This document shows positions 2,926 to 55,828 of a DNA stretch of 64,000 nucleotides, in pieces; the first letter of the stretch is position 1, and every line of letters begins with the position of its first letter. The translations under genes were made by a program, and so were the position numbers. The notes beneath the pieces are model-generated. The model worked only from the letters and a program-made list of their open reading frames with translations. It was not told the origin of the DNA and searched no databases. The stretch lies in contig JADJWA010000001.1 in NCBI GenBank assembly GCA_016716605.1, forward strand, positions 2,349,342 to 2,413,341, given 5' to 3'. The stretch is from Flavobacteriales bacterium (lineage in GTDB: Bacteria; Bacteroidota; Bacteroidia; Flavobacteriales_F; PHOS-HE28).

Positions 2926-3015
2926 TCCAGCCTCGCATCGTGGTGCTGACGGCACGACACCTCAGCAGCGAATTGCCCTTGCAATGAGGGCGAGGAGGCA
3001 CCACCAAGCAGACCG

Positions 3016-3035
3016 ATTACCGGTTTTCTGGTATT
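3016..3035. promoter_or_regulatory. NarL/LuxR-type 7-2-7 inverted-repeat box (TACCGGT-TT-TCTGGTA), copy A
   Basis: Imperfect palindrome ATTACCGGTTTTCTGGTATT. It lies immediately upstream of the response-regulator gene. A near-identical copy is at 7589-7609. Confidence 0.5.
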
Positions 3036-3042
3036 TTCCCCG

Positions 3043-3747
3043 ATGCAGGCGGCATTGATTTTTGCCGCCATGCAGATGAAGATGAACACGTCGACCTTGC
3101 TGTTGGTGGATGATCAGTCGATGATGCTCGACGGCATTGAATCGCTGCTGGCCACGATGGATGAGGTGAAAGTGCTGGGCCGGTGCACTAACGGCAAGGA
3201 CGCGGTGGCCCAAGCGGAATTGCTGCGGCCGGACCTTGTGCTGATGGATGTGAACATGCCCGGCATGGACGGCATAGAGGCCACCAAGCGCCTGCTGAAG
3301 GTGAGCCCGTATAGCAAGGTGCTCATCTTGAGCATGTACGGCCACAAGGAGTTCGTTCTGGAGGTGATGGAAGCCGGTGCATGCGGCTACTTGCTGAAGA
3401 ATGCGGGGAAGCTTGAGCTCATGGAGGCCTTGCACATCGTGGCCACCGGCGGCAAGTACGTCGCGCGGGAATTGGCTGCGGTCATCGCGAACGGGGATCG
3501 CTTCAAGGACCGGCGTGGGGAGACACGCTATGGTGCCCTTTCCAAGCGCGAAGTGGACATCGTGCGATTGATCCTGCAGGAGCGCACTTCCCAGGAGATC
3601 GCCGAAACCCTATTCCTGAGCTCCGAAACGGTTGAGACGCACCGAAGGAACATTATGCATAAGCTTGACGTCCGCAATACCGCTGGCTTGGTGAAGTACG
3701 CCATGGAGCGGGGCTGGGGAAACAACAACGAGAGCACGAACCGATAA
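3043..3747 (+). CDS. LuxR/NarL-family response regulator (REC + HTH_LuxR)
   Basis: Receiver motifs LLLVDDQ and LVLMDVNMPGMDG are present, followed by a C-terminal LuxR HTH (LSKREVDIVRLILQERTSQEIAETLFLSSETVETHRRNIMHKL). Internal ATGs at 3070, 3076 and 3082 are alternative starts. Confidence 0.88.
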   Translation: MQAALIFAAMQMKMNTSTLLLVDDQSMMLDGIESLLATMDEVKVLGRCTNGKDAVAQAELLRPDLVLMDVNMPGMDGIEATKRLLKVSPYSKVLILSMYGHKEFVLEVMEAGACGYLLKNAGKLELMEALHIVATGGKYVARELAAVIANGDRFKDRRGETRYGALSKREVDIVRLILQERTSQEIAETLFLSSETVETHRRNIMHKLDVRNTAGLVKYAMERGWGNNNESTNR

Positions 3748-3758
3748 ACCAACGACCG

Positions 3759-4202
3759 ATGAGCTGGAACATCAATGATCCTGAGGCGGAAGTGAACGAA
3801 GAGTACCAGAGCAAGATCACGCATCCGAAGAACCAGTACTTCACCGGGGAGCGGGTGCTGGACCTTGAGAATCAGGTGATCACGTTGAAGTACGCGGAGC
3901 GCATCGGAGTGGACGAAGGAAGCGAGGATATTCAGCTGGGATTGGACCGTGCTGATGAAGAGGAGGATGAGCAATGGGTGCTCTATGTCGAAGTCGACCC
4001 GCCTGATCCGAAGTCCGAGAGCGCACGACGGAAGCCGGTGCGGATGTCAACTTCCGGCGGAGGCGGAGGCGATGAACAGCGCACGGTCGTGATCAAGAGC
4101 CCGGCTGAGGTGCGCTTGCGCGTTCGTTCAGCGAAGATCTCGTTCAAGCCGGCCATCAAGACCAAGCCGTTCCCCGATCCGGGCAAGCTCAAGCGGCCTT
4201 AG
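3759..4202 (+). CDS. Hypothetical acidic protein (147 aa), no recognisable domain
   Basis: Clean ORF with protein-like composition, 11 bp after the regulator stop. It has an acidic stretch (DEEEDEQ), a Gly5 run and a basic tail. Confidence 0.5.
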   Translation: MSWNINDPEAEVNEEYQSKITHPKNQYFTGERVLDLENQVITLKYAERIGVDEGSEDIQLGLDRADEEEDEQWVLYVEVDPPDPKSESARRKPVRMSTSGGGGGDEQRTVVIKSPAEVRLRVRSAKISFKPAIKTKPFPDPGKLKRP

Positions 4203-4216
4203 TCTTCCAAGCGGGT

Positions 4217-5512
4217 ATGAAGCATGCCGCGTTGATCGGCCACGCACTGCTCGCGGCCATGCCCTTGGTGTCGGTGCATGCCCAGATCAGCGAAAAGCCA
4301 ACCGGCGCATGCCTGCCGGACGCGATCGCATCGCTCTGTGATCGGTTGCTCCCGGCATCCGGGCATGTGCACATCACGGACGCTGATGGCAAGGTGCGTG
4401 CGTGCCCATGTGAACACCTACTTCGTGGCTCTCTGGATGAGCTGAATGCCCTGCGCGCCGTGCGAGACCGGCTGTCTGTGCAGCGAATGGATTCCCGCTG
4501 GAAGCATGCCACAACCGGGTCCAACCTTCCAGCGACGATCAACGACATTTTGATCGGGGTCGAGGAAGGCGAACCATTGGTGGAGGATACGAGCGTGTAC
4601 CTGGATGCGGCCTGGAGGTGCCCAGAGGAAAGCCGATTGCGACGGATCGTCACCGAGATCGCCCATCTGGAAACGATCGGTCGCGCGGTGACGGAGCGGT
4701 TCCAGTTCACGCTGGTGGTGCAACCGAACCCGGGCTGGGACGACCGTTTCATGCGCATCCTGCCCGCTGGCAGATCCGGTTGGTGGATCATCCGCATACC
4801 AGCGCCGTTGCTCTGGTCTCCGCACATGAGCGATGAGCTCCTGGTGTTCATGCTGCTTCATGAGATGGGCCATGCACTGGATGATTCCGAACCGGAACAG
4901 ATGATGGCATCGGAACTCATGTCGGATCACTGGGCAACAAGCGTTGGATTGACGGCCTATTACGGCGATGAGCGCGCTGCCGAGCTCCGCCCCCGCATCG
5001 CGCAGGATTTCCGTGAATATCACAAGGACATCTATACCCTCGAGACATTCGATCGGTCTTCCTGCGAAACCGGCCGCTTGAATGACTACCCACGACTCGC
5101 GTGCCGTTTGGAATGCATCCGTGACCCGCAGTGGGCCGCATCCGTGAGAGGTTCGGGTTTCACTTTCCCAGACTCGTGCTGGTCCACACGGCCATGTGGC
5201 CCGCGTTTCAATCCAGCTCGGGAGTGGGCGCGCGGTGATTGCTACCGTGCGGACGAGGGCGGAGGAAACCCCCTGGTCGGAGTGAGCGAACGGCTTGAAT
5301 CGCTCAACGAGCTGCATGGCGATCTGGATGGGAAGTTCTGTGAGCGACGCCCCGAACTTTGCGGGCTCAAGCAGCCGGAGCGCAACAAGCAGCTGGCGGC
5401 GGAGATCCGCTACTTGCGGATGCGAGAACGGCGCATCGAATCCCCGCTTGACCGATCGATCCGAAGACTGCGCAGGTTGAACACCGAGATTCTGCTCAAA
5501 GACAAGCCATGA
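4217..5512 (+). CDS. Hypothetical secreted Cys-rich protein with HExxH (HEMGH) zinc-binding-like motif
   Basis: N-terminal signal peptide (MKHAALIGHALLAAMPLVSVHAQ). The HEMGHALDD motif is present, and the stop overlaps the downstream kinase start by 4 bp (ATGA). It was chosen over the antisense shadow ORF 4418-5581. Confidence 0.5.
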   Translation: MKHAALIGHALLAAMPLVSVHAQISEKPTGACLPDAIASLCDRLLPASGHVHITDADGKVRACPCEHLLRGSLDELNALRAVRDRLSVQRMDSRWKHATTGSNLPATINDILIGVEEGEPLVEDTSVYLDAAWRCPEESRLRRIVTEIAHLETIGRAVTERFQFTLVVQPNPGWDDRFMRILPAGRSGWWIIRIPAPLLWSPHMSDELLVFMLLHEMGHALDDSEPEQMMASELMSDHWATSVGLTAYYGDERAAELRPRIAQDFREYHKDIYTLETFDRSSCETGRLNDYPRLACRLECIRDPQWAASVRGSGFTFPDSCWSTRPCGPRFNPAREWARGDCYRADEGGGNPLVGVSERLESLNELHGDLDGKFCERRPELCGLKQPERNKQLAAEIRYLRMRERRIESPLDRSIRRLRRLNTEILLKDKP

Positions 5513-7545
5513 TGCGTTGGTCCGCACGGTGCCTGGCGCTTGCCTTCGCGGCTCTTGCGCTTGCGCATCCATCCAGCGCACGCGATGCCTGGCCGTCGTT
5601 CGACCGCTTCACCACCTGCTTCAACCGCAACCAGCCTGATTCGCTCCGAGCGCTTGCTCAGGAATTGCGTGCTGCCAGCGATCCGTATGATCGGCACCTC
5701 GGCATCCTTGCGCTGGCCGGTGCCCAATTCCGCACCGATGACCTCGCGACATGCACGCGTACGCTCGATAGCCTCGAACGGGTCGTCGCACGAGATGCTT
5801 TGGCCGTTCGCGCGGTGGCCCAGCGCATCCGCTCCATGCTCATGAGCGCCGTGGGCGATCCGGAGCGTGGCGTGCTTGAGGCTGATCGCGGTCTCGCCTT
5901 GTTGAAGGGTGGGAAGCTGCCCGAGGAAGAAGTGGCCTTGATGGTCGTGCGCGCGGAGGCCCTCACGCAGCTGGATGATCTTGATGCCGCGCTCCATCAA
6001 TTCGCCGAAGCACAACGCCTCACTGCTGAGGTGAACTACCTCCGTGGCGAATGCCTGGTGCGCATCGGCTTAGGCAACATCCGCTACAAGCAGGGGCGCT
6101 ATGATGAGGCCTGGCAGGACTACCTGCGAACCTTCACCGTCGCATCAGCCAACGGTTTCGATAAGGTGGCCCAGAGCGCCTTGGGCAACCTGGGTGGCGT
6201 GGCCACCATGACCGGCAAGTACGACCTCGCCGTGCACCTCTACGACAGCCTGCTCACGCTGCTCGGCCCACGGAGCGCGGAATTGCGCGCGCGCCTGCAC
6301 GGGCAGAAGGGCTACGTGCTGATCGAGATGGAGGACTACTCTGCAGCGGTGCAAAGCTGCAAGCGCTCCATCGCGCTTTCCGACTCCATCGGCGATCTGC
6401 GAGGCAGCACCGATGTCTCGCATGACCTGGCTTATGCCATGTGGCAGCTCGGTGAACGCGATGGTGCGATGCGCTTGATGCACCAAATGCTCGCAACAGC
6501 GGTCCAGCGCAACTGGGCCGAACAGCAGCAGTACATCCACCTGGATCTGCACGACTGGTACAAGGAACTGGGCCGCAGTGAACAAGCGCTCCTGCACATG
6601 AGCCGCTACAGTGCGCTGTCCGATTCCCTTTCGCGTGTCCGTTTCTCGCAGCAGATCGCGCATTCGGAGATCGCCTTCGAGACGGAACGGAAAGAGCATC
6701 GGATCGCGGAGCAGGACCAGGCCCTGCGGATTGCCGAAGCAGAGGATCGCCGTAAATCCATGCAGCGCAACCTGTCCATAGCATTGGTCGCCGTGCTGCT
6801 GGTGGTCGCGGTGGTGCTCTGGCGGAGCCTTCGCATCCGCAGGAAGCTCGCCGCGCATGAGCGGGAGCTGCACGCCCAACGGGTTGACGAGCTCATGCAC
6901 CAGCAGGAGATCAAGGCCATCAATGCCATGCTGGAAGGGCAGGAGAAGGAGCGCGACCGCGTGGCCAAGGACCTGCACGACCGGTTGGGCAGCATGCTCA
7001 GCGCCATCAAGCACCAGGTCGGTGCACTGGAGCATGAGGTGCAATTGGTGCGTGCGGATCAGGGCACGCAATACACCAAGGTGAATCGCATGCTCGATGA
7101 AGCGGTGGGCGAAGTGCGCCGCATCTCGCACGACATGATTGCCGTCACGCTCTCGCGTTTCGGTTTGGGCAAGGCGCTGGAGGATCTCTGCGACACCGTG
7201 CGCATCAGTGGCCGCCTTGGGGTGGAGTTGCGGGTCTTCGGACTGGAGCAGCGCATGGACCGCTCGCTGGAGATCGTGGTGTACCGCATGGTGCAGGAAC
7301 TGGTGAGCAACGTGCTCAAGCATGCACAGGCCACCGAGCTGAGCGTGAACGTGACCCGCGAGCCGGGTCGATTGAGCGTGATGGTGATCGACGATGGCAA
7401 GGGCTTCGATGCCCAGGCCCAATCCGCAGGCATCGGCCTCGGCAACGTGCGTGCGCGTGCCGCCGCCATTGGTGCAGTTGTGCGCGTGGACAGCACACCC
7501 GGCAAAGGCACCACGGTGAGCGTGGAGTGCCCGATCGTGGAGTAG
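5509..7545 (+). CDS. TPR-repeat sensor histidine kinase (HisKA_3 H-box + HATPase_c)
   Basis: Signal peptide, then about 400 aa of TPR-like repeats and one TM helix (LSIALVAVLLVVAVVLW). The H-box is ERDRVAKDLHDRLGSMLSAI, NarX/DesK type. The C-terminus has ATPase G-boxes (GIGLGNVRARAAAIGAV). Confidence 0.85.
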   Translation: MMRWSARCLALAFAALALAHPSSARDAWPSFDRFTTCFNRNQPDSLRALAQELRAASDPYDRHLGILALAGAQFRTDDLATCTRTLDSLERVVARDALAVRAVAQRIRSMLMSAVGDPERGVLEADRGLALLKGGKLPEEEVALMVVRAEALTQLDDLDAALHQFAEAQRLTAEVNYLRGECLVRIGLGNIRYKQGRYDEAWQDYLRTFTVASANGFDKVAQSALGNLGGVATMTGKYDLAVHLYDSLLTLLGPRSAELRARLHGQKGYVLIEMEDYSAAVQSCKRSIALSDSIGDLRGSTDVSHDLAYAMWQLGERDGAMRLMHQMLATAVQRNWAEQQQYIHLDLHDWYKELGRSEQALLHMSRYSALSDSLSRVRFSQQIAHSEIAFETERKEHRIAEQDQALRIAEAEDRRKSMQRNLSIALVAVLLVVAVVLWRSLRIRRKLAAHERELHAQRVDELMHQQEIKAINAMLEGQEKERDRVAKDLHDRLGSMLSAIKHQVGALEHEVQLVRADQGTQYTKVNRMLDEAVGEVRRISHDMIAVTLSRFGLGKALEDLCDTVRISGRLGVELRVFGLEQRMDRSLEIVVYRMVQELVSNVLKHAQATELSVNVTREPGRLSVMVIDDGKGFDAQAQSAGIGLGNVRARAAAIGAVVRVDSTPGKGTTVSVECPIVE

Positions 7546-7588
7546 CTGGCAGGTTTCGCAAGTCGCTGCATCGCAGAGGCTTGCAGTG

Positions 7589-7609
7589 AATTACCGGTTT
7601 TCTGGTATT
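7589..7609. promoter_or_regulatory. NarL/LuxR-type 7-2-7 box, copy B (AATTACCGGTTTTCTGGTATT)
   Basis: The core is identical to the box at 3016-3035. It lies between the kinase stop (7545) and the giant adhesin start (7697). Confidence 0.5.
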
Positions 7610-7696
7610 GTGGTGGGATAGGGGCGCGGCGTGCTTTGTTCTCGTCCTGGTCGAGCACCGATTCGTGGTGCTTGACTAGCATCAAAAGCACCAACG

Positions 7697-10600
7697 ATGT
7701 CCCCACTCTACGCACGCTCCTTCCGCATCCTGATCATCGCAGTTTGCCTCCTTAGCGCATGCGTGCCCGTGGGCACGGAGGACCACATGCCTGAACGGAC
7801 CCCTCTGAAGTCGGTCGCACAAGCAGAGAGGCCGACGCCGTGGCTTCCGATCCTGGGCGCGGCTTCCTTCCAGCCCGATGGCCCGCAACTGCCCGAGTTA
7901 GAAGGCGCGGGCAACGCGGCTATCCCCGAATACTGGTATGCCAGCATCCAAGCCGATATCGCCGCCAGCGAGTACCACATCAACTGGCGTGAGGACCTGG
8001 GAGCGTACCAGAGTCCCAACCGCGCTCAGGACCTGCGGATCACCTACCGCCACGATGGCTTCCGCGTGCAACCCCGTGTCGATGGCGAGGCATGGGAGGT
8101 GGAGCTCACCCTGGATCGCATCGGTAAGCCGGGCGATTGGTCAACCCCGTCTGACTCAGCATCCATGAGGGCTGAGGGTACTACGCTTGTCGTAGACCAT
8201 GGCAACTTCACCATGGATTACCAAAACCGCGAGGAGGGGATGCGGCAGAACTTCGTAGTAAAGGACCGGCCGCGGGGGTATGGCAGCCTGGAGGTGCGGA
8301 TCAGGGCGACCAGCGAGTTGAAGGCCATCGACCAAGGGGGGGGGCACATTGCTTTCTGCGAAGCTGTGAACAACGGCTCGAGTTACACGCCAAGCGTCTG
8401 GTACAAGGACTTGCATGTGTGGGACGCTCAAGGCGATACGCTCGAAGCTTCTATGCACTTGGAGGGGGAATACATCGCTGTTACTGTAGTGGAGGAAGAT
8501 GCGGCCTATCCGATCACCATTGACCCCATTGTGACAAGCGCACCATGGATCGCGAATGGCTTGGTGCATAATCAGCAGTTCGGCTTTAGTGCAGTAATGG
8601 ATGGCGACCTGAACGGAGATGGGTACGATGATGCCATCATTGGGGCACCTGGCTACGCGAGCAGCATCACGGCCGGTCGGGTGTATGTCTATCACGGGTC
8701 ATATAGCGGGCTGCCATCAATTGCAACACTTACGCTCAATCCCACGGCAGGTACGAGCTGGTTCGGGAACAGCGTGGCATATGCGGGCGATGTGAACAAT
8801 GATGGATTTGACGATGTGATTATCGGTGCGGAAGGCTACAGCAATGGCCAGGCCAATGAAGGGCGGGCGTACGTCTACTATGGATCTGCGGCTGGGCTTA
8901 TCACGGCAGCCCCATGGACCGTCGAGAGCAATCAAGCGGGAGCCAATCTCGGTTCTAGTGTTGCAAGAGCGGGCGATGTGAACAACGATGGTTATGACGA
9001 CATCATCATTGGTGCAGAGGGATACAGCAATGGCCAAGCTGGTGAAGGTCGCTCATTCGTTCACCTTGGGTCCGCTGCTGGTGTTCAAGCCGCAGCAATA
9101 TGGTTCGCAGAAAGCAACGTAGCCTCCTCTAGGTTTGGATGCAGCGTTTCCTCCGCTGGAGATGTGAATGGAGATGGGTTTGACGATGTGGTCATTGGGG
9201 CATTGCTTTATAACAACGGTCAAGCAGGTGAAGGAGGGGCGTTTGTCTTTCACGGCTCGGCTCTTGGGCCATCGGCGACCCCGAATTGGAGCACTGAATC
9301 CAACCAGGTGAACGCATACATGGGCATCGATGTGAGCTGGGCAGGTGATGTGAACGGCGATGGATTCGATGATATCCTCGTTGGGTCAAGTGGATTCAAC
9401 GGCGGGCAAGCAGGTGAGGGTCGCGCTTCCGTTTTTCACGGGTCGGCGTCTGGTCTATCGGCCTTGGCGTCATGGACAATGGAGACCAATGTCGTGTTTG
9501 ACAGTTTCTCAAGTACGGTTGAAGGCGTTGGTGATGTGAACAGCGATGGATTCGCCGATGTATTTGTCGGATCCATGACGAGCGGAAAGGCGCGGATATA
9601 CGGCGGCTCAGCTGCTGGTCTCATGATCGTGCCGATATGGTCCGAGCCTTTCGTTTACTCGAATTTCGGTGCAAGTGGTGGATCCACAGGCGATGTGAAC
9701 GGAGATGGGTTCCTCGACCTCATTATTGGCACGGGCATTTATCCACATTCTAACACGCACGGAACTGCATTTGTCTTCATGGGTGGCCTGAACGGGTTCG
9801 GCTCAACGCTGGCCTGGTTCGAGGATGCGAATCAGACGAATGCGGGTTTAGGATTTTCTGTCAGTAGCGCGGGCGATGTCAACGGTGATGGCTTCAGCGA
9901 TGTCATCATTGGTGCACCCAGTTATGACCTCGGTCAGCTCGACGAAGGAGTGGCGTTTCTCTATCACGGATCAGCGAATGGCCTGTCTGGCGCGCCGATT
10001 CGAATACTACAGGGAAATGTGGCGAATGCGCGGTTCGGCGGTTGGGTTTCCACGGCTGGTGACGTCAATGCGGATGGATTCGCTGATGTGATCATCGGGG
10101 CCCCGCACTGGAACGGCTTGCAGGGGCGTGTTTACCTGTACTTGGGCTCATCGGCAAGTGTTCCGCTGGTCGAATCGTGGACGTACTCACCGGCAGCTGG
10201 ATTGATCTATTTCGGATTAAGGGTCTCTGCTGCTGGCGACATTGATGGGGATGGGTACAGTGATTTTCTTGTGGGCACTTTACCTGGTGCCTTTTATGTA
10301 TTCGAAGGCACTTCCACAGGAGTCCCTGGCATACCGACCGTAGTTAGCGGAGCAGGAATCGCCTTGTCTGGGGCAGGCGATGTGAATGGGGATGGTTACA
10401 GTGACGTGATAGCAGGTTGCGGATATTGCGGTGTTCCGATCAACTCAGGGTCGGCTTCGGTTTATTTGGGGTCGCCTGCGGGTCTTTCGGCCGTTGCCTC
10501 CTGGACGAACACGATGGGGCAGATCAACTCGTACTTTGGGATAAGCGTGAACTCCGCTGGAGATGTGAATGGTGACGGATATTCAGATGTTGTCATTGGA

Positions 10601-13309
10601 GCTTACGGCTATAGCAATGGACAGGCTGGCGAAGGATCCGCCTTCATCTTCCATGGGTCTTCAACAGGGTTGCCGGTGAACCCTGATGTAAGCATCGAAT
10701 CGAACCAGAGTGGGGCAAGTTTAGGCTGGGGCGTTGCATGCGCAGGAGACGTGGATGGCGATGGTTATAGCGAAGTGGTGATCGGTGCCCCGTACTTTGA
10801 TGCAGGCCAGCTCAATGAAGGCGCCGTGTTCATCTATCGTGGTGGATCTGCAGGTCTTGCGACCACAGCATTCTGGTCGGCCGAAAGCAACCAGAGCAAT
10901 GCGAACTTCGGCTGGAGCGTCTCAAGCGCCGGCGATGTCAATGGCGATGGGTACAGCGACATCGTGACGGGCACTCCATTTTATGATCGTGGCCAGGCAG
11001 ATGAGGGTGCGGCATTCCTCTATCACGGCAGCGCCTCCACACTTGCCGCTCAGGAAAGTTGGACCGCAGAGTGCGACCAGGCGAATGCGCAATATGGTTG
11101 GAGTGTCGCTACTGCTGGTGATGTGAATGGCGATGGGTTCAGTGATGTTCTCGTCGGAGCACCGCTTTTCGATAATGGCGAAGTAGATGAGGGAAGGGCC
11201 TTCATCTACAATGGCTCGCTTGCCGGTCCTGCAAGTTCCCCATCGTGGATCAATGAAGGTAACCAAGCAGGTGCCCGGTATGGTCATTCTTTGGCTGGGG
11301 CGGGGGATGTCAATGGTGACGGCTACAGTGATGTCATCATCGGGGCACCCCAGTATGACAATGGAGAGGTCGACGAAGGGCGAGCGTATGTTTATCTGGG
11401 CAGTGCAAGCGGCGTCGCTTTGCCCGCTTCGTGGACCACCGAAAGCAATCAAACCGGTGCGCAGCTCGGCTATAGTGTCGCGAGCGCTGGTGATGTCAAT
11501 GGTGACGCCTTCAGCGAGGTCATAGTTGGGTCACCATACTACGACAACGGCCAGATTGATGAGGGTATGGTGCAAGTATATCATGGTTCGCTAGTCGGCC
11601 TTTCCATTCTGCCGAATTGGTCGGCAGAGAGCAACCAAGTTGGGGCTCGCTTCGGGGAGAGCGTGGCAGGAGTCGGTAGCTTGAACAACGACCCTTTTGG
11701 AGACGTGGTCATCGGCGCCCCGGGCTGGGATAATGGCCATGTTGATGAAGGCAAGGCATACGGCTATCACGGTTCCATCGTCGGGCTGGCGGCTATTCCT
11801 GCTTGGCAAAGTGAGGGGCAGACCACGAACAGGCGATTCGGGCAGAGCGTCTCAAGTGTTGGCGATGTGAACGGTGATGGATTCAATGAGGTCCTGATTG
11901 GCGGTGCGAACGGTTCTTGGATCTATCACGGTGGAACTGCGGGAATAAGCCTGAGCCACACTACAACTGCACCTGCGTTCACCAGCAATGCGAGTTTACC
12001 CTTCGCAGGAAACCGTTGCGCCGGCGCGGGCGATGTGAACGGCGATGGTTATAGCGACGTGGTAACAGGGGAAATCACTTTCGACAACCCTCAGGTTGAT
12101 GAAGGGAGAACGATTGTGTCGCACGGTTCTCCCGGAGGTATTGGCCTGCTCCCAAATTGGGCCATGGAAAGCAATCAGGCGGGATCCGGTTTTGGGATTG
12201 CGGCCAGCAGTGCAGGCGATGTGAACGGTGACGGTTATGGTGATGTGATCGTAGGCGCCCACCTTTACGACAATGGTCAAGCGGATGAGGGTAGGGCGTT
12301 AATCATCTACGGGAACAATGGGACCGGATTAAGGCACAATATGCGCCTATACAACAACGATCTTGCTGCACCAATTAGTTCCGCCAATACCACTTCCGGT
12401 ACATTCGGGGCAGGCCTCTACGCGAAGCCCTTCCTTGGGAGCCAGTTCGTCAGGAGCGTATGGGAAACAAGGCTTCACGGCCAGGCATTCAGCAGTGGAG
12501 CTGGTCGGATCACGAACAGCACTGCGTCTACGGCTCAGCAAGTTGCAAGCGGCTCATCGGGAACCGGCGGGACTGAACGAAAAGATGTGGTCACCAAGCT
12601 ATCGGGCGGGGGGCCAGTGAACGCCACCCGCGTTCGCGCACGGCTCCGATACAGCATGGCCACCGCCATCACGGGCCAGGTGTTCGGCCCGTGGCGCTAC
12701 ATGCCCGGCTTCCACGACGGCCACGGCACGCACAACAACATTCCGCTTCCAGTGGAGCTTTTGTACCAGCAGGCAACCTGCGAGAGCAAACAGGTGCTGC
12801 TCGAATGGGCCACCGGCAGCGAACTCAACAACAGCCACTTCGTGGTGGAGCGGAGCGAGGAGGGCACGGAGTGGAAGGACGTGAGCGTGGTGCCGGGTGC
12901 CGGAACCAGTTTGCAATTGATTGAATACCGGTGGACAGATGATGATCCCTCGAATGCACAAGTGGTTTACTACAGGCTACGCCAGGTTGATCTGGATGGG
13001 CGTGAGGAAGTCTTCCAGATGATTCCTGTGGCGAATTGCGGCGGTAGCAGCGCAGTGATCACGGCCTACCCGAATCCGGCAACAGACCTGCTGCACGTTT
13101 CCATCAACGTTGCCGAAGCCATCGACGGCGGTCGCTTGGAATTGCGCGATGCCATGGCGCGTCCGGTCTACAGCAAGATCCTATCGGTTGAGGCTGGGCA
13201 GAGCACCATCCAATTCGACATGAGCGGGCTGGCGTCCGGGTCCTACCTGCTTCAGCTTACCGATGCGCGCGGCGCCACCGTGGACAAGATCCACGTGGTG
13301 AAGCTGTGA
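7697..13309 (+). CDS. Giant FG-GAP-repeat (integrin-alpha-like) surface protein with T9SS type-A C-terminal sorting domain
   Basis: 1870 aa. The N-terminus is lipoprotein-like (LLSAC). There are about 21 repeats of …AGDVNGDG(F/Y)xDV(I/V)IGAP…G…EGRAYVY.GS. The C-terminus is …YPNPATDLLHV…GSYLLQLTD…KIHVVKL. Confidence 0.85.
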   Translation: MSPLYARSFRILIIAVCLLSACVPVGTEDHMPERTPLKSVAQAERPTPWLPILGAASFQPDGPQLPELEGAGNAAIPEYWYASIQADIAASEYHINWREDLGAYQSPNRAQDLRITYRHDGFRVQPRVDGEAWEVELTLDRIGKPGDWSTPSDSASMRAEGTTLVVDHGNFTMDYQNREEGMRQNFVVKDRPRGYGSLEVRIRATSELKAIDQGGGHIAFCEAVNNGSSYTPSVWYKDLHVWDAQGDTLEASMHLEGEYIAVTVVEEDAAYPITIDPIVTSAPWIANGLVHNQQFGFSAVMDGDLNGDGYDDAIIGAPGYASSITAGRVYVYHGSYSGLPSIATLTLNPTAGTSWFGNSVAYAGDVNNDGFDDVIIGAEGYSNGQANEGRAYVYYGSAAGLITAAPWTVESNQAGANLGSSVARAGDVNNDGYDDIIIGAEGYSNGQAGEGRSFVHLGSAAGVQAAAIWFAESNVASSRFGCSVSSAGDVNGDGFDDVVIGALLYNNGQAGEGGAFVFHGSALGPSATPNWSTESNQVNAYMGIDVSWAGDVNGDGFDDILVGSSGFNGGQAGEGRASVFHGSASGLSALASWTMETNVVFDSFSSTVEGVGDVNSDGFADVFVGSMTSGKARIYGGSAAGLMIVPIWSEPFVYSNFGASGGSTGDVNGDGFLDLIIGTGIYPHSNTHGTAFVFMGGLNGFGSTLAWFEDANQTNAGLGFSVSSAGDVNGDGFSDVIIGAPSYDLGQLDEGVAFLYHGSANGLSGAPIRILQGNVANARFGGWVSTAGDVNADGFADVIIGAPHWNGLQGRVYLYLGSSASVPLVESWTYSPAAGLIYFGLRVSAAGDIDGDGYSDFLVGTLPGAFYVFEGTSTGVPGIPTVVSGAGIALSGAGDVNGDGYSDVIAGCGYCGVPINSGSASVYLGSPAGLSAVASWTNTMGQINSYFGISVNSAGDVNGDGYSDVVIGAYGYSNGQAGEGSAFIFHGSSTGLPVNPDVSIESNQSGASLGWGVACAGDVDGDGYSEVVIGAPYFDAGQLNEGAVFIYRGGSAGLATTAFWSAESNQSNANFGWSVSSAGDVNGDGYSDIVTGTPFYDRGQADEGAAFLYHGSASTLAAQESWTAECDQANAQYGWSVATAGDVNGDGFSDVLVGAPLFDNGEVDEGRAFIYNGSLAGPASSPSWINEGNQAGARYGHSLAGAGDVNGDGYSDVIIGAPQYDNGEVDEGRAYVYLGSASGVALPASWTTESNQTGAQLGYSVASAGDVNGDAFSEVIVGSPYYDNGQIDEGMVQVYHGSLVGLSILPNWSAESNQVGARFGESVAGVGSLNNDPFGDVVIGAPGWDNGHVDEGKAYGYHGSIVGLAAIPAWQSEGQTTNRRFGQSVSSVGDVNGDGFNEVLIGGANGSWIYHGGTAGISLSHTTTAPAFTSNASLPFAGNRCAGAGDVNGDGYSDVVTGEITFDNPQVDEGRTIVSHGSPGGIGLLPNWAMESNQAGSGFGIAASSAGDVNGDGYGDVIVGAHLYDNGQADEGRALIIYGNNGTGLRHNMRLYNNDLAAPISSANTTSGTFGAGLYAKPFLGSQFVRSVWETRLHGQAFSSGAGRITNSTASTAQQVASGSSGTGGTERKDVVTKLSGGGPVNATRVRARLRYSMATAITGQVFGPWRYMPGFHDGHGTHNNIPLPVELLYQQATCESKQVLLEWATGSELNNSHFVVERSEEGTEWKDVSVVPGAGTSLQLIEYRWTDDDPSNAQVVYYRLRQVDLDGREEVFQMIPVANCGGSSAVITAYPNPATDLLHVSINVAEAIDGGRLELRDAMARPVYSKILSVEAGQSTIQFDMSGLASGSYLLQLTDARGATVDKIHVVKL
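8560..12330 (+). repeat. About 21 tandem FG-GAP units (roughly 180 bp / 60 aa each) inside the giant CDS
   Basis: The GDVNGDG-centred motif was counted in the translation. The units have diverged at the nucleotide level. Confidence 0.8.
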
Positions 13310-13348: not shown

Positions 13349-14374
13349 ATGGCCATGAACACACCCTTACGCGCTCTCTCATTCGCATTCGCGAGCGTCT
13401 GCGCGACAACCCTCGCCGCCCAGCCGACCTTGACCAGCTCCAACTACGTTCCGGTTTTCGGCATGGAGCGGGAGTATGAATGCGCCTCGATCGCTGATCC
13501 CGGTCCGGTCGGTGCCGATGCGATCTGGGATTTCTCCACCGTGGATCCGTTCTTCGACTGGGACATGAGCTATTACGATCACACGCAGGATCAGTACGCC
13601 GCCGATTTCCCCAACGCTACGCACGGCGGTAACGCAGTGCATGCCGATAACTTTTATTATGCCGCAAGTGCCACGGGCATCGAGATGCTCGGCTTCAAGT
13701 ACTACGACGCCGGGCTCAACCAGCCCTTCTTCGACCTGGCAACGGATCCCCTGCTGTTCCTGCCCTTCCCATGCGCATACGGCACAGCATGGGATGATGA
13801 TGGTGCGGGCACGTACCGTACTTATGAGACGGCCGGAGTGCGCACCTACGTGGCGAACATCACCGGAGAAGCAACCGGTTATGGCACGCTCATCCTGCCC
13901 AACGGCACCTACAATGATGTGCTGCGCGTGGATTGGGTGCGTTACATCAACGTGAACAACCTGGAGGTCGGCTACGAATGGACGATGTCATCGTTCTACC
14001 TGGCAGGTTTTCCGCTCCCTGTGGCGGAATGGGAGCGCAAGAAGACCTGGATCCTTGGAGAACTCCTGGATGATCCGTTGGAAGGCAAGTTCTGCTGGTT
14101 GCTCGATCCTGCGATGCAACTCGACAAGGATGAAGCGCCTTTCGCTTTCTCCGTCACCCCGAACCCGGCCGAGGACCAGGTCGTGGTGCAACTCGGGGTG
14201 GTGGACCCAGCCGCTGTGGTCAGCATCTCGGATGCGGCTGGCCGGTTGGTGATGCAGCGTCCGGCATCGGGCGATCGGTTGGTGCTGGACATTGCTGACC
14301 TGCAACCCGGCGCCTACCAGCTTTCCGTGATGACAGCCGGCACAGCGCAGGCGCGACAGTTCATCAAGCTGTAA
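13349..14374 (+). CDS. Hypothetical secreted protein with T9SS C-terminal sorting domain
   Basis: Signal peptide (MAMNTPLRALSFAFASVCATTLAAQ) and an aromatic-rich body. The C-terminus is …FSVTPNPAEDQVVVQL…GAYQLSVMT…QFIKL. Confidence 0.6.
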   Translation: MAMNTPLRALSFAFASVCATTLAAQPTLTSSNYVPVFGMEREYECASIADPGPVGADAIWDFSTVDPFFDWDMSYYDHTQDQYAADFPNATHGGNAVHADNFYYAASATGIEMLGFKYYDAGLNQPFFDLATDPLLFLPFPCAYGTAWDDDGAGTYRTYETAGVRTYVANITGEATGYGTLILPNGTYNDVLRVDWVRYINVNNLEVGYEWTMSSFYLAGFPLPVAEWERKKTWILGELLDDPLEGKFCWLLDPAMQLDKDEAPFAFSVTPNPAEDQVVVQLGVVDPAAVVSISDAAGRLVMQRPASGDRLVLDIADLQPGAYQLSVMTAGTAQARQFIKL

Positions 14375-28174: not shown

Positions 28175-30421
28175 ATGAAAGCACTCTTACGCGGAATCTT
28201 CCTGCTCCACCTCGCCCTGCTCTTGGCGTCATTGGATGCCCTGGCCATTACAGCGAACATCTCCGTGCAGACCTATCCTACCTGCAATTACCCCAGTGGG
28301 CAGTTGCTGGCATGGGCCACTGGGGGCGTGGGCCCATACACCTATATGTGGAGCACGGGTGAAACTACCGCCACCATCAGTGGTGTCACCCCGGGCTCGT
28401 ACTCGGTCACGGTGACCGACGCGCTGAGCGATCAGGCGACCGCGAACATCGATCTGGTTGGGCAGCCTTACGCCCTAACCGATCTTGGGAATGGCGGCCC
28501 GGAGGGGCTCTGCAATGCGATCACTGGTGTGGTGGTTGATGGACCGGGCATTGACACGTGGGGAGAGCCATACATGGGTCCCTTGCCCTATACCGTCAAT
28601 GGCCAGATGCTGCAGGAGTACATCTATTACGACTTCTTCGGCTCCTTGCCGCTGGATACATTCTATGTAGGCACGTGGTCGGCTGCGGGACAGTACGGAA
28701 CAGGCTTGAACTACACCTTCACCGATGGGGGCGGATGCTCGGGCACGCTTTACGAGTACATCGGCTATCCGGTCGAGTGGCCGGACCTCACCATTCTCGA
28801 CATTGAAGGCGCTTGCGCCAATGGGAGCAATGGGTCAATCACTTTCCAAACAGGCTTGGAGGGGCATAGCCAATCCACGCAGGTGAAGATCCAGGACTTC
28901 AACTTCAACCATATCGCCACTTTCGGGGCAGGCAGCCAGACGTACACGAACACCTATGCCTTGCTCCCTCCTGGCGATTACTTCCTCACGCAGTTCATGA
29001 GTGAATCGGACTTCCTGGTGAGCAGCGGCTGCCAGCAGACCACGCCATTCACCATCCCGGATCTGGGCAATGGCTGCGCGAACGTCCGGGGCGCGCCCTT
29101 CATGGACAACAACGAGGACTGCGCGCGCCAAGGGAATGAGCCTATCGTGCCTGGCGTGGTGCTCGAGATCCTGCCGGGGCCGACGTACGTGCTGAGCAAT
29201 AGCAATGGCTACAGCGTGAACCTGCCGAATGGCGCGTACACGATCGAGCAGCAGAGCGCCATCCTGGATGTGCATTGCAGTGGCGCGCCGATCCCATTCA
29301 CCCTCGCGGGCAGCCAGGCCCCGGTCACGGTGAACATACCCGACACGGCACTGGTACCGATGGATGCGGCCATCAGCATGGCCAGCGGTGCCGCACGGCC
29401 GGGCTTCGAGCTCGCATGCACCGCGCGCATGACCAACCTCACGCTGGCCAGCACGGGGAGCAGCACGCTCACGGTGACCTTCGACCCATTGCTGGGCTAC
29501 ATCTCGTCCACCCCTGCGGGCAATGTGGTCGGCAATACCATCACCTGGAGCATCCCTGCCTTCAGCTCATTCCAGGAGCGCGTGGTCCACATGCGCTTCC
29601 AAGTGCCGCCGGACATCATCCTGCTGGGCACAGACCTGCTCTTCGGCGGCAGCTTCGCCACTGGCAATGCCGATGCTGTGCCAGCGAACAACAGCGCATC
29701 GCTCATCACCACCATCACCGGCAGCTACGACCCGAACGACAAGACGGCGCGCACCAGCAGCGCATGGAGCGACGAGCTATTCTACATCGATGTGGATGAA
29801 TGGATCGACTACACCATCCGCTTCCAGAACACGGGCACGGATACCGCCTTCAATGTGGTGATCACGGACACGGTGCCGCCTGAGCTGGACCTGGCCACCC
29901 TCGTGGTCGGCGCGTCATCGCATCCCAACTCACTCTCCATCCGCGATGGCCGGGTGCTGCGATGGGCTTTCTACAACATCCAGCTGCCCGATAGCAACGT
30001 GAATGAGCCGCGCAGTCACGGATACGTCTCTTTCCGCATTCGTCCGCACCTGCCCATCGCGCCGGGCACCGTGATCGAGAACACCGCCAACATCTTCTTC
30101 GACTTCAACCCGCCAGTGATCACCGAGCCGAGCGTGTTGATGGCGGAGTACAGTACCGAAGTTGAGCCGAATAGAGCAACACCAGGACTCTACGTGTTCC
30201 CGAACCCAGCTACAGATCACCTCACCGTGGGCGGAATGGGTACGACCGATGTGATCAAGGAGATCCGATTGCGCGCAGTGGACGGCCGCATGTTGCGGAC
30301 TATCAATGTAGTTGGTAGCTCAGCGCGTCTGGAGGTGACTGACCTTTCCGCCGGCCTCTACGTGTTGGAGGTCATCTTGGTGACCGATAAGCGATGGACG
30401 ACCACGATCATCAAACCTTGA
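28175..30421 (+). CDS. Array paralog 1: secreted SprB-repeat / DUF11 protein with T9SS type-A CTD
   Basis: Signal peptide; SprB repeat (…GGVGPYTYMWSTGETTATISGVTPGSYSVTVTD…); C-x-V-x-G-x-F-D-N-D-C prealbumin-like module; two DUF11-like modules (ARPGFE…, SYDPNDK…DEWIDYTIRFQNTGTDTAF); and a CTD (LYVFPNPATDHLTV…LYVLEV…IIKP). Confidence 0.85.
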   Translation: MKALLRGIFLLHLALLLASLDALAITANISVQTYPTCNYPSGQLLAWATGGVGPYTYMWSTGETTATISGVTPGSYSVTVTDALSDQATANIDLVGQPYALTDLGNGGPEGLCNAITGVVVDGPGIDTWGEPYMGPLPYTVNGQMLQEYIYYDFFGSLPLDTFYVGTWSAAGQYGTGLNYTFTDGGGCSGTLYEYIGYPVEWPDLTILDIEGACANGSNGSITFQTGLEGHSQSTQVKIQDFNFNHIATFGAGSQTYTNTYALLPPGDYFLTQFMSESDFLVSSGCQQTTPFTIPDLGNGCANVRGAPFMDNNEDCARQGNEPIVPGVVLEILPGPTYVLSNSNGYSVNLPNGAYTIEQQSAILDVHCSGAPIPFTLAGSQAPVTVNIPDTALVPMDAAISMASGAARPGFELACTARMTNLTLASTGSSTLTVTFDPLLGYISSTPAGNVVGNTITWSIPAFSSFQERVVHMRFQVPPDIILLGTDLLFGGSFATGNADAVPANNSASLITTITGSYDPNDKTARTSSAWSDELFYIDVDEWIDYTIRFQNTGTDTAFNVVITDTVPPELDLATLVVGASSHPNSLSIRDGRVLRWAFYNIQLPDSNVNEPRSHGYVSFRIRPHLPIAPGTVIENTANIFFDFNPPVITEPSVLMAEYSTEVEPNRATPGLYVFPNPATDHLTVGGMGTTDVIKEIRLRAVDGRMLRTINVVGSSARLEVTDLSAGLYVLEVILVTDKRWTTTIIKP

Positions 30422-54828: not shown

Positions 54829-54903
54829 TCGGGGTGAGTGGATTCGAACCACCGACCTCGTCGTCCCGAACGACGCGCGCTAACCGGGCTGCGCTACACC
54901 CCG
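54829..54903 (-). tRNA. tRNA-Pro (anticodon CGG), 75 nt, no encoded CCA
   Basis: Folds by hand into a cloverleaf: acceptor CGGGGTG/CACCCCG, D-arm GCGC…GCGC, anticodon stem CGTCG/CGACG with loop TTCGGGA (G37), and T-arm GGTGG-TTCGAAT-CCACT. Confidence 0.85.
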
Positions 54904-55755: not shown

Positions 55756-55828
55756 GCGGGAGTAGCTCAGTTGGTAGAGCATCAGCTTCCCAAGCTGAGG
55801 GTCGCGGGTTCGAATCCCGTTTCCCGCT
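55756..55828 (+). tRNA. tRNA-Gly (anticodon CCC), 73 nt, discriminator U
   Basis: Acceptor GCGGGAG/TTCCCGC, D-arm GCTC-AGTTGGTA-GAGC, anticodon stem TCAGC/GCTGA with loop TTCCCAA, and T-arm GCGGG-TTCGAAT-CCCGT. Confidence 0.85.

Follow-up and report, generated by a model that had tools for sequence, protein, structure and literature searches.

A duplicated 20-mer as the predicted operator of a two-component system and an adjacent T9SS protein gene in a Flavobacteriales bacterium

The 20-mer ATTACCGGTTTTCTGGTATT is present twice in a 64-kb stretch of DNA from a Flavobacteriales bacterium (contig JADJWA010000001.1; "the window" below means this whole stretch of 64,000 nucleotides), once before the gene of a NarL/FixJ-family response regulator and once between the gene of the accompanying sensor kinase and that of a 1870-aa FG-GAP repeat protein with a type IX secretion system (T9SS) sorting domain. 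We propose that this sequence is the predicted operator of the regulator encoded at 3070-3747, which would activate its own operon and the adjacent FG-GAP gene; we put the probability of this reading at about 0.62. A sequence-only reading of the window had already suggested an autoregulated two-component system that also controls the neighbouring adhesin gene. This appears to be the best-supported interpretation, as in orthologous loci the box likewise lies upstream of the regulator gene and of genes that follow the kinase gene.

Results

A duplicated 20-mer in two intergenic regions

The two copies, both intergenic and each facing a gene, are as follows.

3016-3035, + strand: box 1, predicted operator, ATTACCGG-TTTT-CTGGTATT; exact 20-mer, 27.5 bits by a matrix of sites from other genomes; about -53 to -34 of the predicted regulator promoter
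7590-7609, + strand: box 2, predicted operator of the FG-GAP gene promoter; exact 20-mer, 30.5 bits by the same matrix

The duplication is thus confirmed, with exactly two copies in the window, both on the + strand, against a chance expectation of 0 (0 in 100 dinucleotide-preserving shuffles). There is no third copy in the window, even with 3 mismatches tolerated. The position first given for box 1 was right, while the second copy starts at 7590 and not at 7589. Box 1 ends 34 nt before the regulator ATG (3070), not 8 nt; box 2 starts 44 nt past the stop codon of the kinase gene (7545), with 87 nt between its end and the FG-GAP ATG (7697). Likeness between the two intergenic regions is limited to the 20-mer. 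A CTTGCArTGA sequence upstream of both boxes, at differing distances (29 nt versus 0 nt), was taken as chance. A common dispersed repeat would have spoken against the idea; in the window the motif does not behave as one, since there are two promoter-linked copies. A REP- or MITE-like element is not what we find either: the copies are on the same strand, two in 64 kb, and the same pattern recurs in 10 related loci.

Conservation of the box at orthologous loci

Orthologous loci were retrieved by means of the regulator protein and not by means of the motif. A long series of regulator orthologues (63-99% identical) comes from other Flavobacteriales metagenome-assembled genomes (MAGs). The loci retrieved include the following.

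L001/L002: wastewater metagenomes, near-identical to the window
L004: regulator 78% identical
L005/L006: regulator 69% identical
L210: regulator 68% identical
L007: regulator 67% identical
L208: regulator 66% identical
L209: CP129489.1, complete MAG genome of a distant relative, regulator 63% identical

The order MFS transporter, sucD, regulator, small open reading frames (ORFs) and kinase is retained in several of these loci. A box lies upstream of the regulator gene in 10/10 orthologous loci (L004, L005, L007, L208, L209, L210, L025, L043, L105 and L016; 55-99% identity), and in most loci 1-3 further copies precede genes that come after the kinase gene. In L209 the motif again precedes an FG-GAP giant behind the system. 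The core GGTTTTCnGGTATT is nearly invariant, with AAwTCA before it and G or T after it, so that the conserved, asymmetric element reads AAwTCAnGGTTTTCCGGTATTK. The left TACC of the window becomes TCAC, TACG, TCCC, TCAG or TCAT in the orthologues.

A matrix was built from 15 sites of other genomes only, leaving out those found by pattern scan, which are pattern-invariant by construction. Applied to the window, it ranks box 2 and box 1 first and second, and the third-best match (10.6 bits, in coding sequence) falls inside the range of the maxima of 20 shuffled windows (6.4-12.7 bits); the window therefore has exactly two sites. As a control, 80 loci (558 kb) around non-orthologous NarL-type regulators, paralogues of 30-41% identity drawn by a metagenome scan with regulator alignment, contained no exact core and no site in the canonical place. 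On this comparative evidence the box is a conserved putative cis-element tied to this two-component system.

Position of the box relative to the predicted promoters

The sequence-only reading was right to single out the box, but it missed a second conserved feature at a fixed distance. The core is followed after exactly 25 nt by TTTG at 11/15 foreign sites, by TTCG at 3/15 and by TTAG at 1/15, and the same 25-nt distance to TTTG is found at both window sites. In Flavobacterium, the sigma-A -7 box TAnnTTTG spans positions -12 to -5 (PMC9723704), and by this measure two promoters with their transcription start sites (TSSs) can be predicted in the window.

3057-3064, + strand: predicted sigma-A -7 box GATTTTTG of the regulator promoter, from the TTTG spacing; TSS at about 3069, 1 nt before the ATG at 3070
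7631-7638, + strand: predicted -7 box GTGCTTTG of the FG-GAP promoter, from the same spacing; TSS at about 7643, giving a 5′ untranslated region of about 54 nt

With the -7 positions of the same study, the box is predicted to lie at about -53 to -34, with its centre at about -43.5. The 3′ TATTG of box 2 supplies the TTG of the -33 element (7608-7610, at -35 to -33), as is also the case at other target-gene sites, and in the box 2 promoter this TTG stands 20 nt upstream of the -7 8-mer, where sigma-A promoters have a spacing of about 19-21 nt. Most sites lack the TA of TAnnTTTG, and at -33 the regulator promoters carry TTT and not TTG. Such weak core promoters fit activator dependence. From this geometry the box is in the predicted position of a class II activator site, over or adjoining the -33 element, and its fixed distance is kept in all 15 independent sites and in both window sites. 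A sigma-70 promoter scan had no match in the window, as is to be expected given that Bacteroidota promoters differ.

The annotated ATG of the regulator comes 4-6 nt after TTTG in six lineages (the window, L004, L005, L209, L210 and L043), which predicts a leaderless or near-leaderless mRNA for the regulator; only a minority of flavobacterial mRNAs is leaderless (5.5%; PMC9723704). Among the non-regulator genes the ATG follows TTTG at anything from 10 to 121 nt. The distance from TTTG to the start codon thus varies while that from the box is fixed, which ties TTTG to the box and not to the start codon.

The position of the box could also be read in the opposite sense, with the same regulator occupying -33 as a repressor and shutting its own operon and the surface-protein genes until a signal releases it. 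Promoter occlusion is a common mode of action of LuxR/GerE-type proteins, and at target promoters the box does overlap the -33 TTG. However, core promoters that mostly lack the TA, with TTT at -33 in the case of the regulator, are typical of activator dependence, and a centre at about -43.5 is close to the classical class II position, so we regard repression as unlikely.

The strict spacing of two conserved blocks, together with the near-invariance of the right half of the upstream one, might instead suggest that the whole block is the promoter of an alternative sigma factor working without an activator; a gene for a sigma factor of the extracytoplasmic function (ECF) type is indeed found about 5 kb upstream in L208. 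Yet no sigma gene is conserved in the neighbourhood of the orthologous loci, the upstream block of about 20 bp with dyad features is far longer than a -35 element, and the downstream block is a sigma-A type TTTG at sigma-A spacing from the TTG (PMC9723704). We hold this explanation to be very improbable. The sigma-54 (TGGCAC-N5-TTGC) and ECF (GGAAC-N16-17-CGT) consensus sequences showed no fit by eye.

Finally, the box might act as RNA, for example as a hairpin that terminates transcription of sucD and of the kinase operon, or be a dispersed repeat without function. Both copies are located just past gene ends, ACCGG-UUUU-CUGGU could form a 6-bp stem, and a scan for terminators marked another stem-loop at box 1, in an overlapping position (3010-3026, then TCTGGTATTT). 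The hairpins of the two boxes are nevertheless no better than those of shuffled sequences (-6.6 and -8.5 kcal/mol, z = -0.8 and -1.2) and the target site in L210 cannot form one (z = +0.8), which makes a terminator or other RNA role unlikely. Nor does a U-tract follow box 2, and the stable GC-rich hairpin, U-tract and conserved pairing of an intrinsic terminator are not found: it is the sequence that is conserved and not merely its pairing. A hairpin or a repeat would also leave the fixed TTTG spacing and the constant orientation unexplained, and there are just two copies in 64 kb; we find this reading scarcely credible.

Dyad structure of the box

The sequence-only reading described the element as a classic 7-2-7 box of the NarL/LuxR type. 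The geometry holds: TACCGGT-TT-TCTGGTA consists of two inverted heptamers with a 2-bp spacer, imperfect in that 5/7 positions are complementary. The likeness to NarL at the level of sequence does not. NarL and NarP of E. coli bind inverted TACYYMT heptamers separated by 2 bp, and this consensus is matched at 5/7 positions by TACCGGT and at 4/7 by TACCAGA; besides, the left heptamer is not conserved among the orthologues, where it reads TCAGGGT, TCACGGT, TACGGGT, TCCCGGT or TCATGGT. What the box shares with the NarL/NarP operators is the inverted 7-2-7 geometry of its inner 16 bp with outer TAC...GTA, as well as a regulator of the same family, with a receiver domain (REC) and a GerE helix-turn-helix (HTH). 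Unlike those operators, the box is conserved over a greater length (about 21 bp plus TTG) and in an asymmetric way; the regulator, for its part, is no NarL equivalog, and the genetic context has no link to nitrate.

When the window box is written as ATTACCGG-TTTT-CTGGTATT, an 8-4-8 arrangement with the same centre as the 7-2-7 one, 6/8 positions pair. Both halves are altered together in L209 as compared with other lineages. Its regulator box TATCATGG-TTTA-CCATGATT has 8 complementary pairs around a central TT, which makes it a near-perfect palindrome, and its two heptamers in the 7-2-7 reading match perfectly (TCATGGT-TT-ACCATGA); the box of its FG-GAP gene is AATCATGG-TTTA-CCATTATT. The form met most often, AATTCAGGGTTTTCCGGTATT, has a weaker left half, and its dyad fits best in a register shifted by half a base pair. 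Across the orthologues the left half is variable and the right half, GGTTTTCCGGTATT, nearly invariant. Judged from these alignments, the element is an imperfect dyad of about 20 bp with a dominant right half. Such a dyad would suit a dimer of the GerE type, with the half-site nearer the promoter under a further constraint from the -33 region.

Occurrence of the motif in other Bacteroidota

A collection scan with the core plus TTTG returned matches in at least 120 stretches, and most of the matches listed are chance occurrences inside genes of unrelated phyla. Among the matches listed, the extended motif AAAACTACTGGTTTTCCGGTATTGT, followed after 24 nt by TTTG, is found in Aurantibacter, other Flavobacteriaceae, Urechidicola and Niabella; also among them, the motif lies downstream of htpG in two Aurantibacter assemblies and in one Flavobacteriaceae MAG. 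In these three assemblies (L109, 2660-2785; L039, 1372-1495; L035, 6070-6194, - strand) the motif and its -7 TTTG are followed by a unit of about 75 nt, which has a variable 5′ hairpin with changes that compensate each other, CCATTAACTATAGCTATAGT without variation and an intrinsic terminator. This unit is a candidate small RNA; Rfam has no family near any motif copy, the 75-nt unit included. Rfam also detected two tRNA genes in the window (54829-54903, - strand; 55756-55828, + strand), which are unrelated to the box. In Niabella defluvii (L091, CP079215.1; + strand, about 6357-6400) the motif diverges from a gene for a TPR-HisKA_3 kinase, some 40 nt upstream of it, and points at a small lipoprotein-like ORF. 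This wider distribution suggests that regulator and operator may form a broadly conserved pair.

The same distribution leaves room for another transcription factor, widely conserved in Bacteroidota, which would bind the box before the two-component operon and many other genes, the adjacent regulator then not being the binder. Among the matches listed, the extended motif in other Bacteroidota mostly has no NarL-type regulator gene in the fetched tile, and a motif before a small-RNA-like unit downstream of htpG would also suit such a factor. On the other hand, a site is placed directly upstream of this very regulator in all of the ten orthologous loci, the other sites cluster after its kinase gene, and the Niabella site adjoins a TPR-HisKA_3 kinase gene. 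Remote regulon members are to be expected for any regulator, and the size of the site and its dyad fit a dimer of the GerE type. We therefore think it quite unlikely that a different factor is the binder.

The two-component operon

The window has about 60% G+C. Between the four genes that run from regulator to kinase there are gaps of 11 nt and 14 nt and a 4-nt overlap, and they are thus taken as an operon.

3070-3747, + strand: NarL/FixJ-family response regulator, REC and GerE HTH, 225 aa (Pfam; start from P0003 and orthologue N-termini)
3759-4202, + strand: 147-aa acidic protein with no assigned family, in the operon, 11 nt after the regulator gene
4217-5512, + strand: secreted protein of 431 aa, rich in Cys, with an HExxH motif (HEMGH); gene of the operon (signal peptide and motif from the translation)
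5509-7545, + strand: sensor histidine kinase with signal peptide, extracytoplasmic TPR domain, one transmembrane segment (about aa 417-445), HisKA_3 and HATPase_c (Pfam, hydropathy)

The original gene calls, a LuxR-type regulator, a HisKA_3 kinase and the 1870-aa FG-GAP T9SS protein, are borne out by Pfam. For the regulator, first placed at 3043-3747, the gene stands and the start does not: the most likely start is the ATG at 3070, as in the orthologue N-termini and in P0003, an NCBI-sourced protein from a Flavobacteriales MAG that is identical and 225 aa long. Pfam finds both the receiver domain (Response_reg, 3.4e-25) and GerE (1.7e-16), and the closest solved structures over the full length are VraR (3.5e-36) and NarL (2.8e-34). 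D14, D15, D60, S88 and K110, that is the acidic pocket, the phosphoacceptor Asp, the Ser and the Lys, are invariant across 14 orthologues, and the recognition helix TVETHRRNI(M/F)HKLD is highly conserved among them. With both domains present, the protein is assigned by its sequence to the NarL/FixJ (LuxR-type) family. It scores 143.5 bits against the NCBIfam NarL equivalog, the cut-off being 250, and is below the cut-off for all other named equivalogs. In the L209 clade, M of the recognition helix is changed to F, and this coincides with the variant box of the clade. We considered the change as a co-variation of protein and site, and dropped it, as this is not a base-contacting position by analogy with NarL.

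Small ORFs are found at the position of the 147-aa gene in orthologous loci; its product has no Pfam or NCBIfam match. The 431-aa protein has no Pfam or NCBIfam family either, and just two homologues in a search of 5.8 billion proteins. It is 80% identical to its L001 copy while the regulator, the 147-aa protein and the sucD product are 99% and the kinase 95.6% identical, and its gene is therefore locally fast-evolving. An exact-sequence look-up of the regulator (from 3043), the 147-aa and the 431-aa proteins gave no record.

The kinase, whose HisKA_3 core is cytoplasmic, has the composition of a HisKA_3 sensor kinase of the NarX/LiaS/DesK type (HisKA_3, 4.9e-10; HATPase_c, 5.3e-14; H-box DLHDRLG). 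Two tandem TPR-HisKA_3 kinase genes are present in L209 (13447-15480), where they stand behind one regulator gene, and in L007; the kinase has therefore been duplicated in some lineages. In Porphyromonas gingivalis, the FimS/FimR system with its TPR-sensor kinase controls fimbrial adhesin genes. The present system resembles it as a two-component system of Bacteroidota with an extracytoplasmic TPR sensor, for which control of an adhesin is proposed here. It differs in that the kinase core is HisKA_3 and paired with a NarL-type regulator, and in that the predicted targets are T9SS cargo and not fimbriae; the NCBIfam match of the kinase sensor region to FimS is weak (32 bits versus a cut-off of 600), and the two systems are not orthologous.

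Further + strand genes confirmed by Pfam are those of an MFS transporter (685-1989), of sucD (2056-2925) and of an aconitase, the last after the 341-aa gene described below.

Predicted target genes

Two genes for T9SS-sorted proteins follow box 2.

7697-13309, + strand: 1870-aa FG-GAP repeat protein with lipoprotein-type signal peptide and T9SS C-terminal sorting domain, predicted target (Pfam, N-terminus)
13349-14374, + strand: 341-aa T9SS-sorted protein (Pfam, NCBIfam), 39 nt past the FG-GAP stop codon

The 341-aa gene has no matrix match upstream and is possibly co-transcribed with the FG-GAP gene. The genes preceded by the motif in the various loci are those of the regulator (10 loci), of FG-GAP giants (the window and L209) and, in one cluster with them, of a T9SS protein of about 450 aa (L005, L016, L024, L026, L043 and L210), of a Cys-rich protein of about 214 aa (3 loci), of the 'ASGNWNALGTWEQ' family, which includes a 4546-aa giant, and of a protein with Big_1 (a faint match) and Fib_succ_major domains. 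Most of the non-regulator products start with a signal-peptide-like N-terminus.

A comparison of close relatives shows where these genes differ. In L016, where the regulator is 99% and the aligned DNA 94.6% identical, the alignment to the window ends at the kinase stop codon (7546), and the break is followed by a different gene headed by its own box. In L001 the alignment ends at 7613, 4 nt past box 2. Across the break regions (7546-7613 in the window, 6993-7064 in L016 and 8332-8414 in L001) the box is retained while the secreted-protein gene differs. From these alignments, the cargo that follows the system appears to have been swapped as box-headed cassettes. One may go further and regard the box as a portable promoter-operator module which heads interchangeable T9SS cargo cassettes behind a conserved TPR-kinase/NarL-type system, and which is conserved into Flavobacteriaceae and Chitinophagaceae, where it would also drive the candidate small RNA; we advance this tentatively and with more doubt than belief.

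The sequence-only reading had suggested that control by the regulator might extend to an array of paralogs further downstream. This is not upheld, there being no site above background elsewhere in the 64 kb; the matrix scan of the window detects no box in the array. Matches to the 16-mer with 2-3 mismatches do occur there, but they lie on the opposite strand, all at a single coding position that paralogy has multiplied, and are not sites. The array (28175-50973) comprises ten or eleven tandem genes for proteins of about 730-900 aa; the two members tested against Pfam both have SprB repeat, DUF11 and DUF7619 matches, and the first of them (28175-30421) has a T9SS sorting domain.

Discussion

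The duplication of the box, the conservation of the motif and its constant position, its linkage to the regulator orthologues and the secreted nature of its targets are supported directly. The mechanism that we propose begins with the TPR-domain kinase (5509-7545), which would sense an extracytoplasmic cue and phosphorylate the regulator. The regulator would then dimerise on the imperfect dyad of about 20 bp, which is predicted to lie at a class II position and to abut or overlap the -33 element in a weak sigma-A promoter of the Bacteroidota type. Bound at box 1, it would activate its own operon (regulator, 147-aa, 431-aa and kinase genes) from a near-leaderless mRNA, which would constitute positive autoregulation; bound at box 2, it would activate the adjacent FG-GAP/T9SS gene and probably the 341-aa gene behind it. 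Binding of the box by this regulator and not by another one, an activating effect of that binding and the start points of transcription are predictions.

Several observations weigh against this mechanism. The left half-site is far less conserved than the right one, so that recognition by a dimer may not be symmetric; moreover, lineages differ by half a base pair in their best dyad register. The right half, which is invariant, overlaps with the -33 region, and its conservation may in part reflect contacts with RNA polymerase. The motif copies of Aurantibacter and Niabella are without a regulator gene within the 8-kb tile, which would be possible with a different, widely conserved factor. The copy number, finally, is that of the 64-kb window.

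In this context, it is useful to compare the box with the class II sites of LuxR-type activators and with the sites of other GerE-family dimers (TraR, DosR, VraR/LiaR). The lux box is 20 bp long and centred at about -42.5, the classical position of a class II activator being about -41.5 or -42.5. The present element is likewise an imperfect palindrome of about 20 bp that adjoins or lies over the upstream promoter element, with a predicted centre at about -43.5, a presumed dimeric HTH binder and a weak core promoter. It differs from these sites in its promoter, which is of the Bacteroidota sigma-A type (-33 TTG and -7 TAnnTTTG) and not of the -35/-10 type, in a regulator controlled by phosphorylation and not by an autoinducer, and in that the TSS is a predicted one.

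The circuit logic itself, an autoregulated two-component system with neighbouring targets, is textbook, and autoregulated NarL-family regulons are already known as a kind. A description of the motif was not found in limited literature searches (keywords and motif string), which is weak evidence of novelty. To our knowledge, almost no operators or regulons have been assigned to the abundant TPR-HisKA_3/LuxR-type systems of Bacteroidota, and we know of little on the regulation of T9SS cargo and adhesins in environmental Bacteroidota beyond PorXY/SigP. What the present analysis offers is a concrete predicted operator, AAwTCAnGGTTTTCCGGTATTK at 25 nt before a -7 TTTG, and with it a predicted secreted-protein regulon for an uncultured wastewater lineage of Flavobacteriales; the motif could be used for target prediction in MAGs. 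If the box should prove to be a portable module, it would define a widespread and so far undescribed regulon of Bacteroidota for the remodelling of the cell surface.

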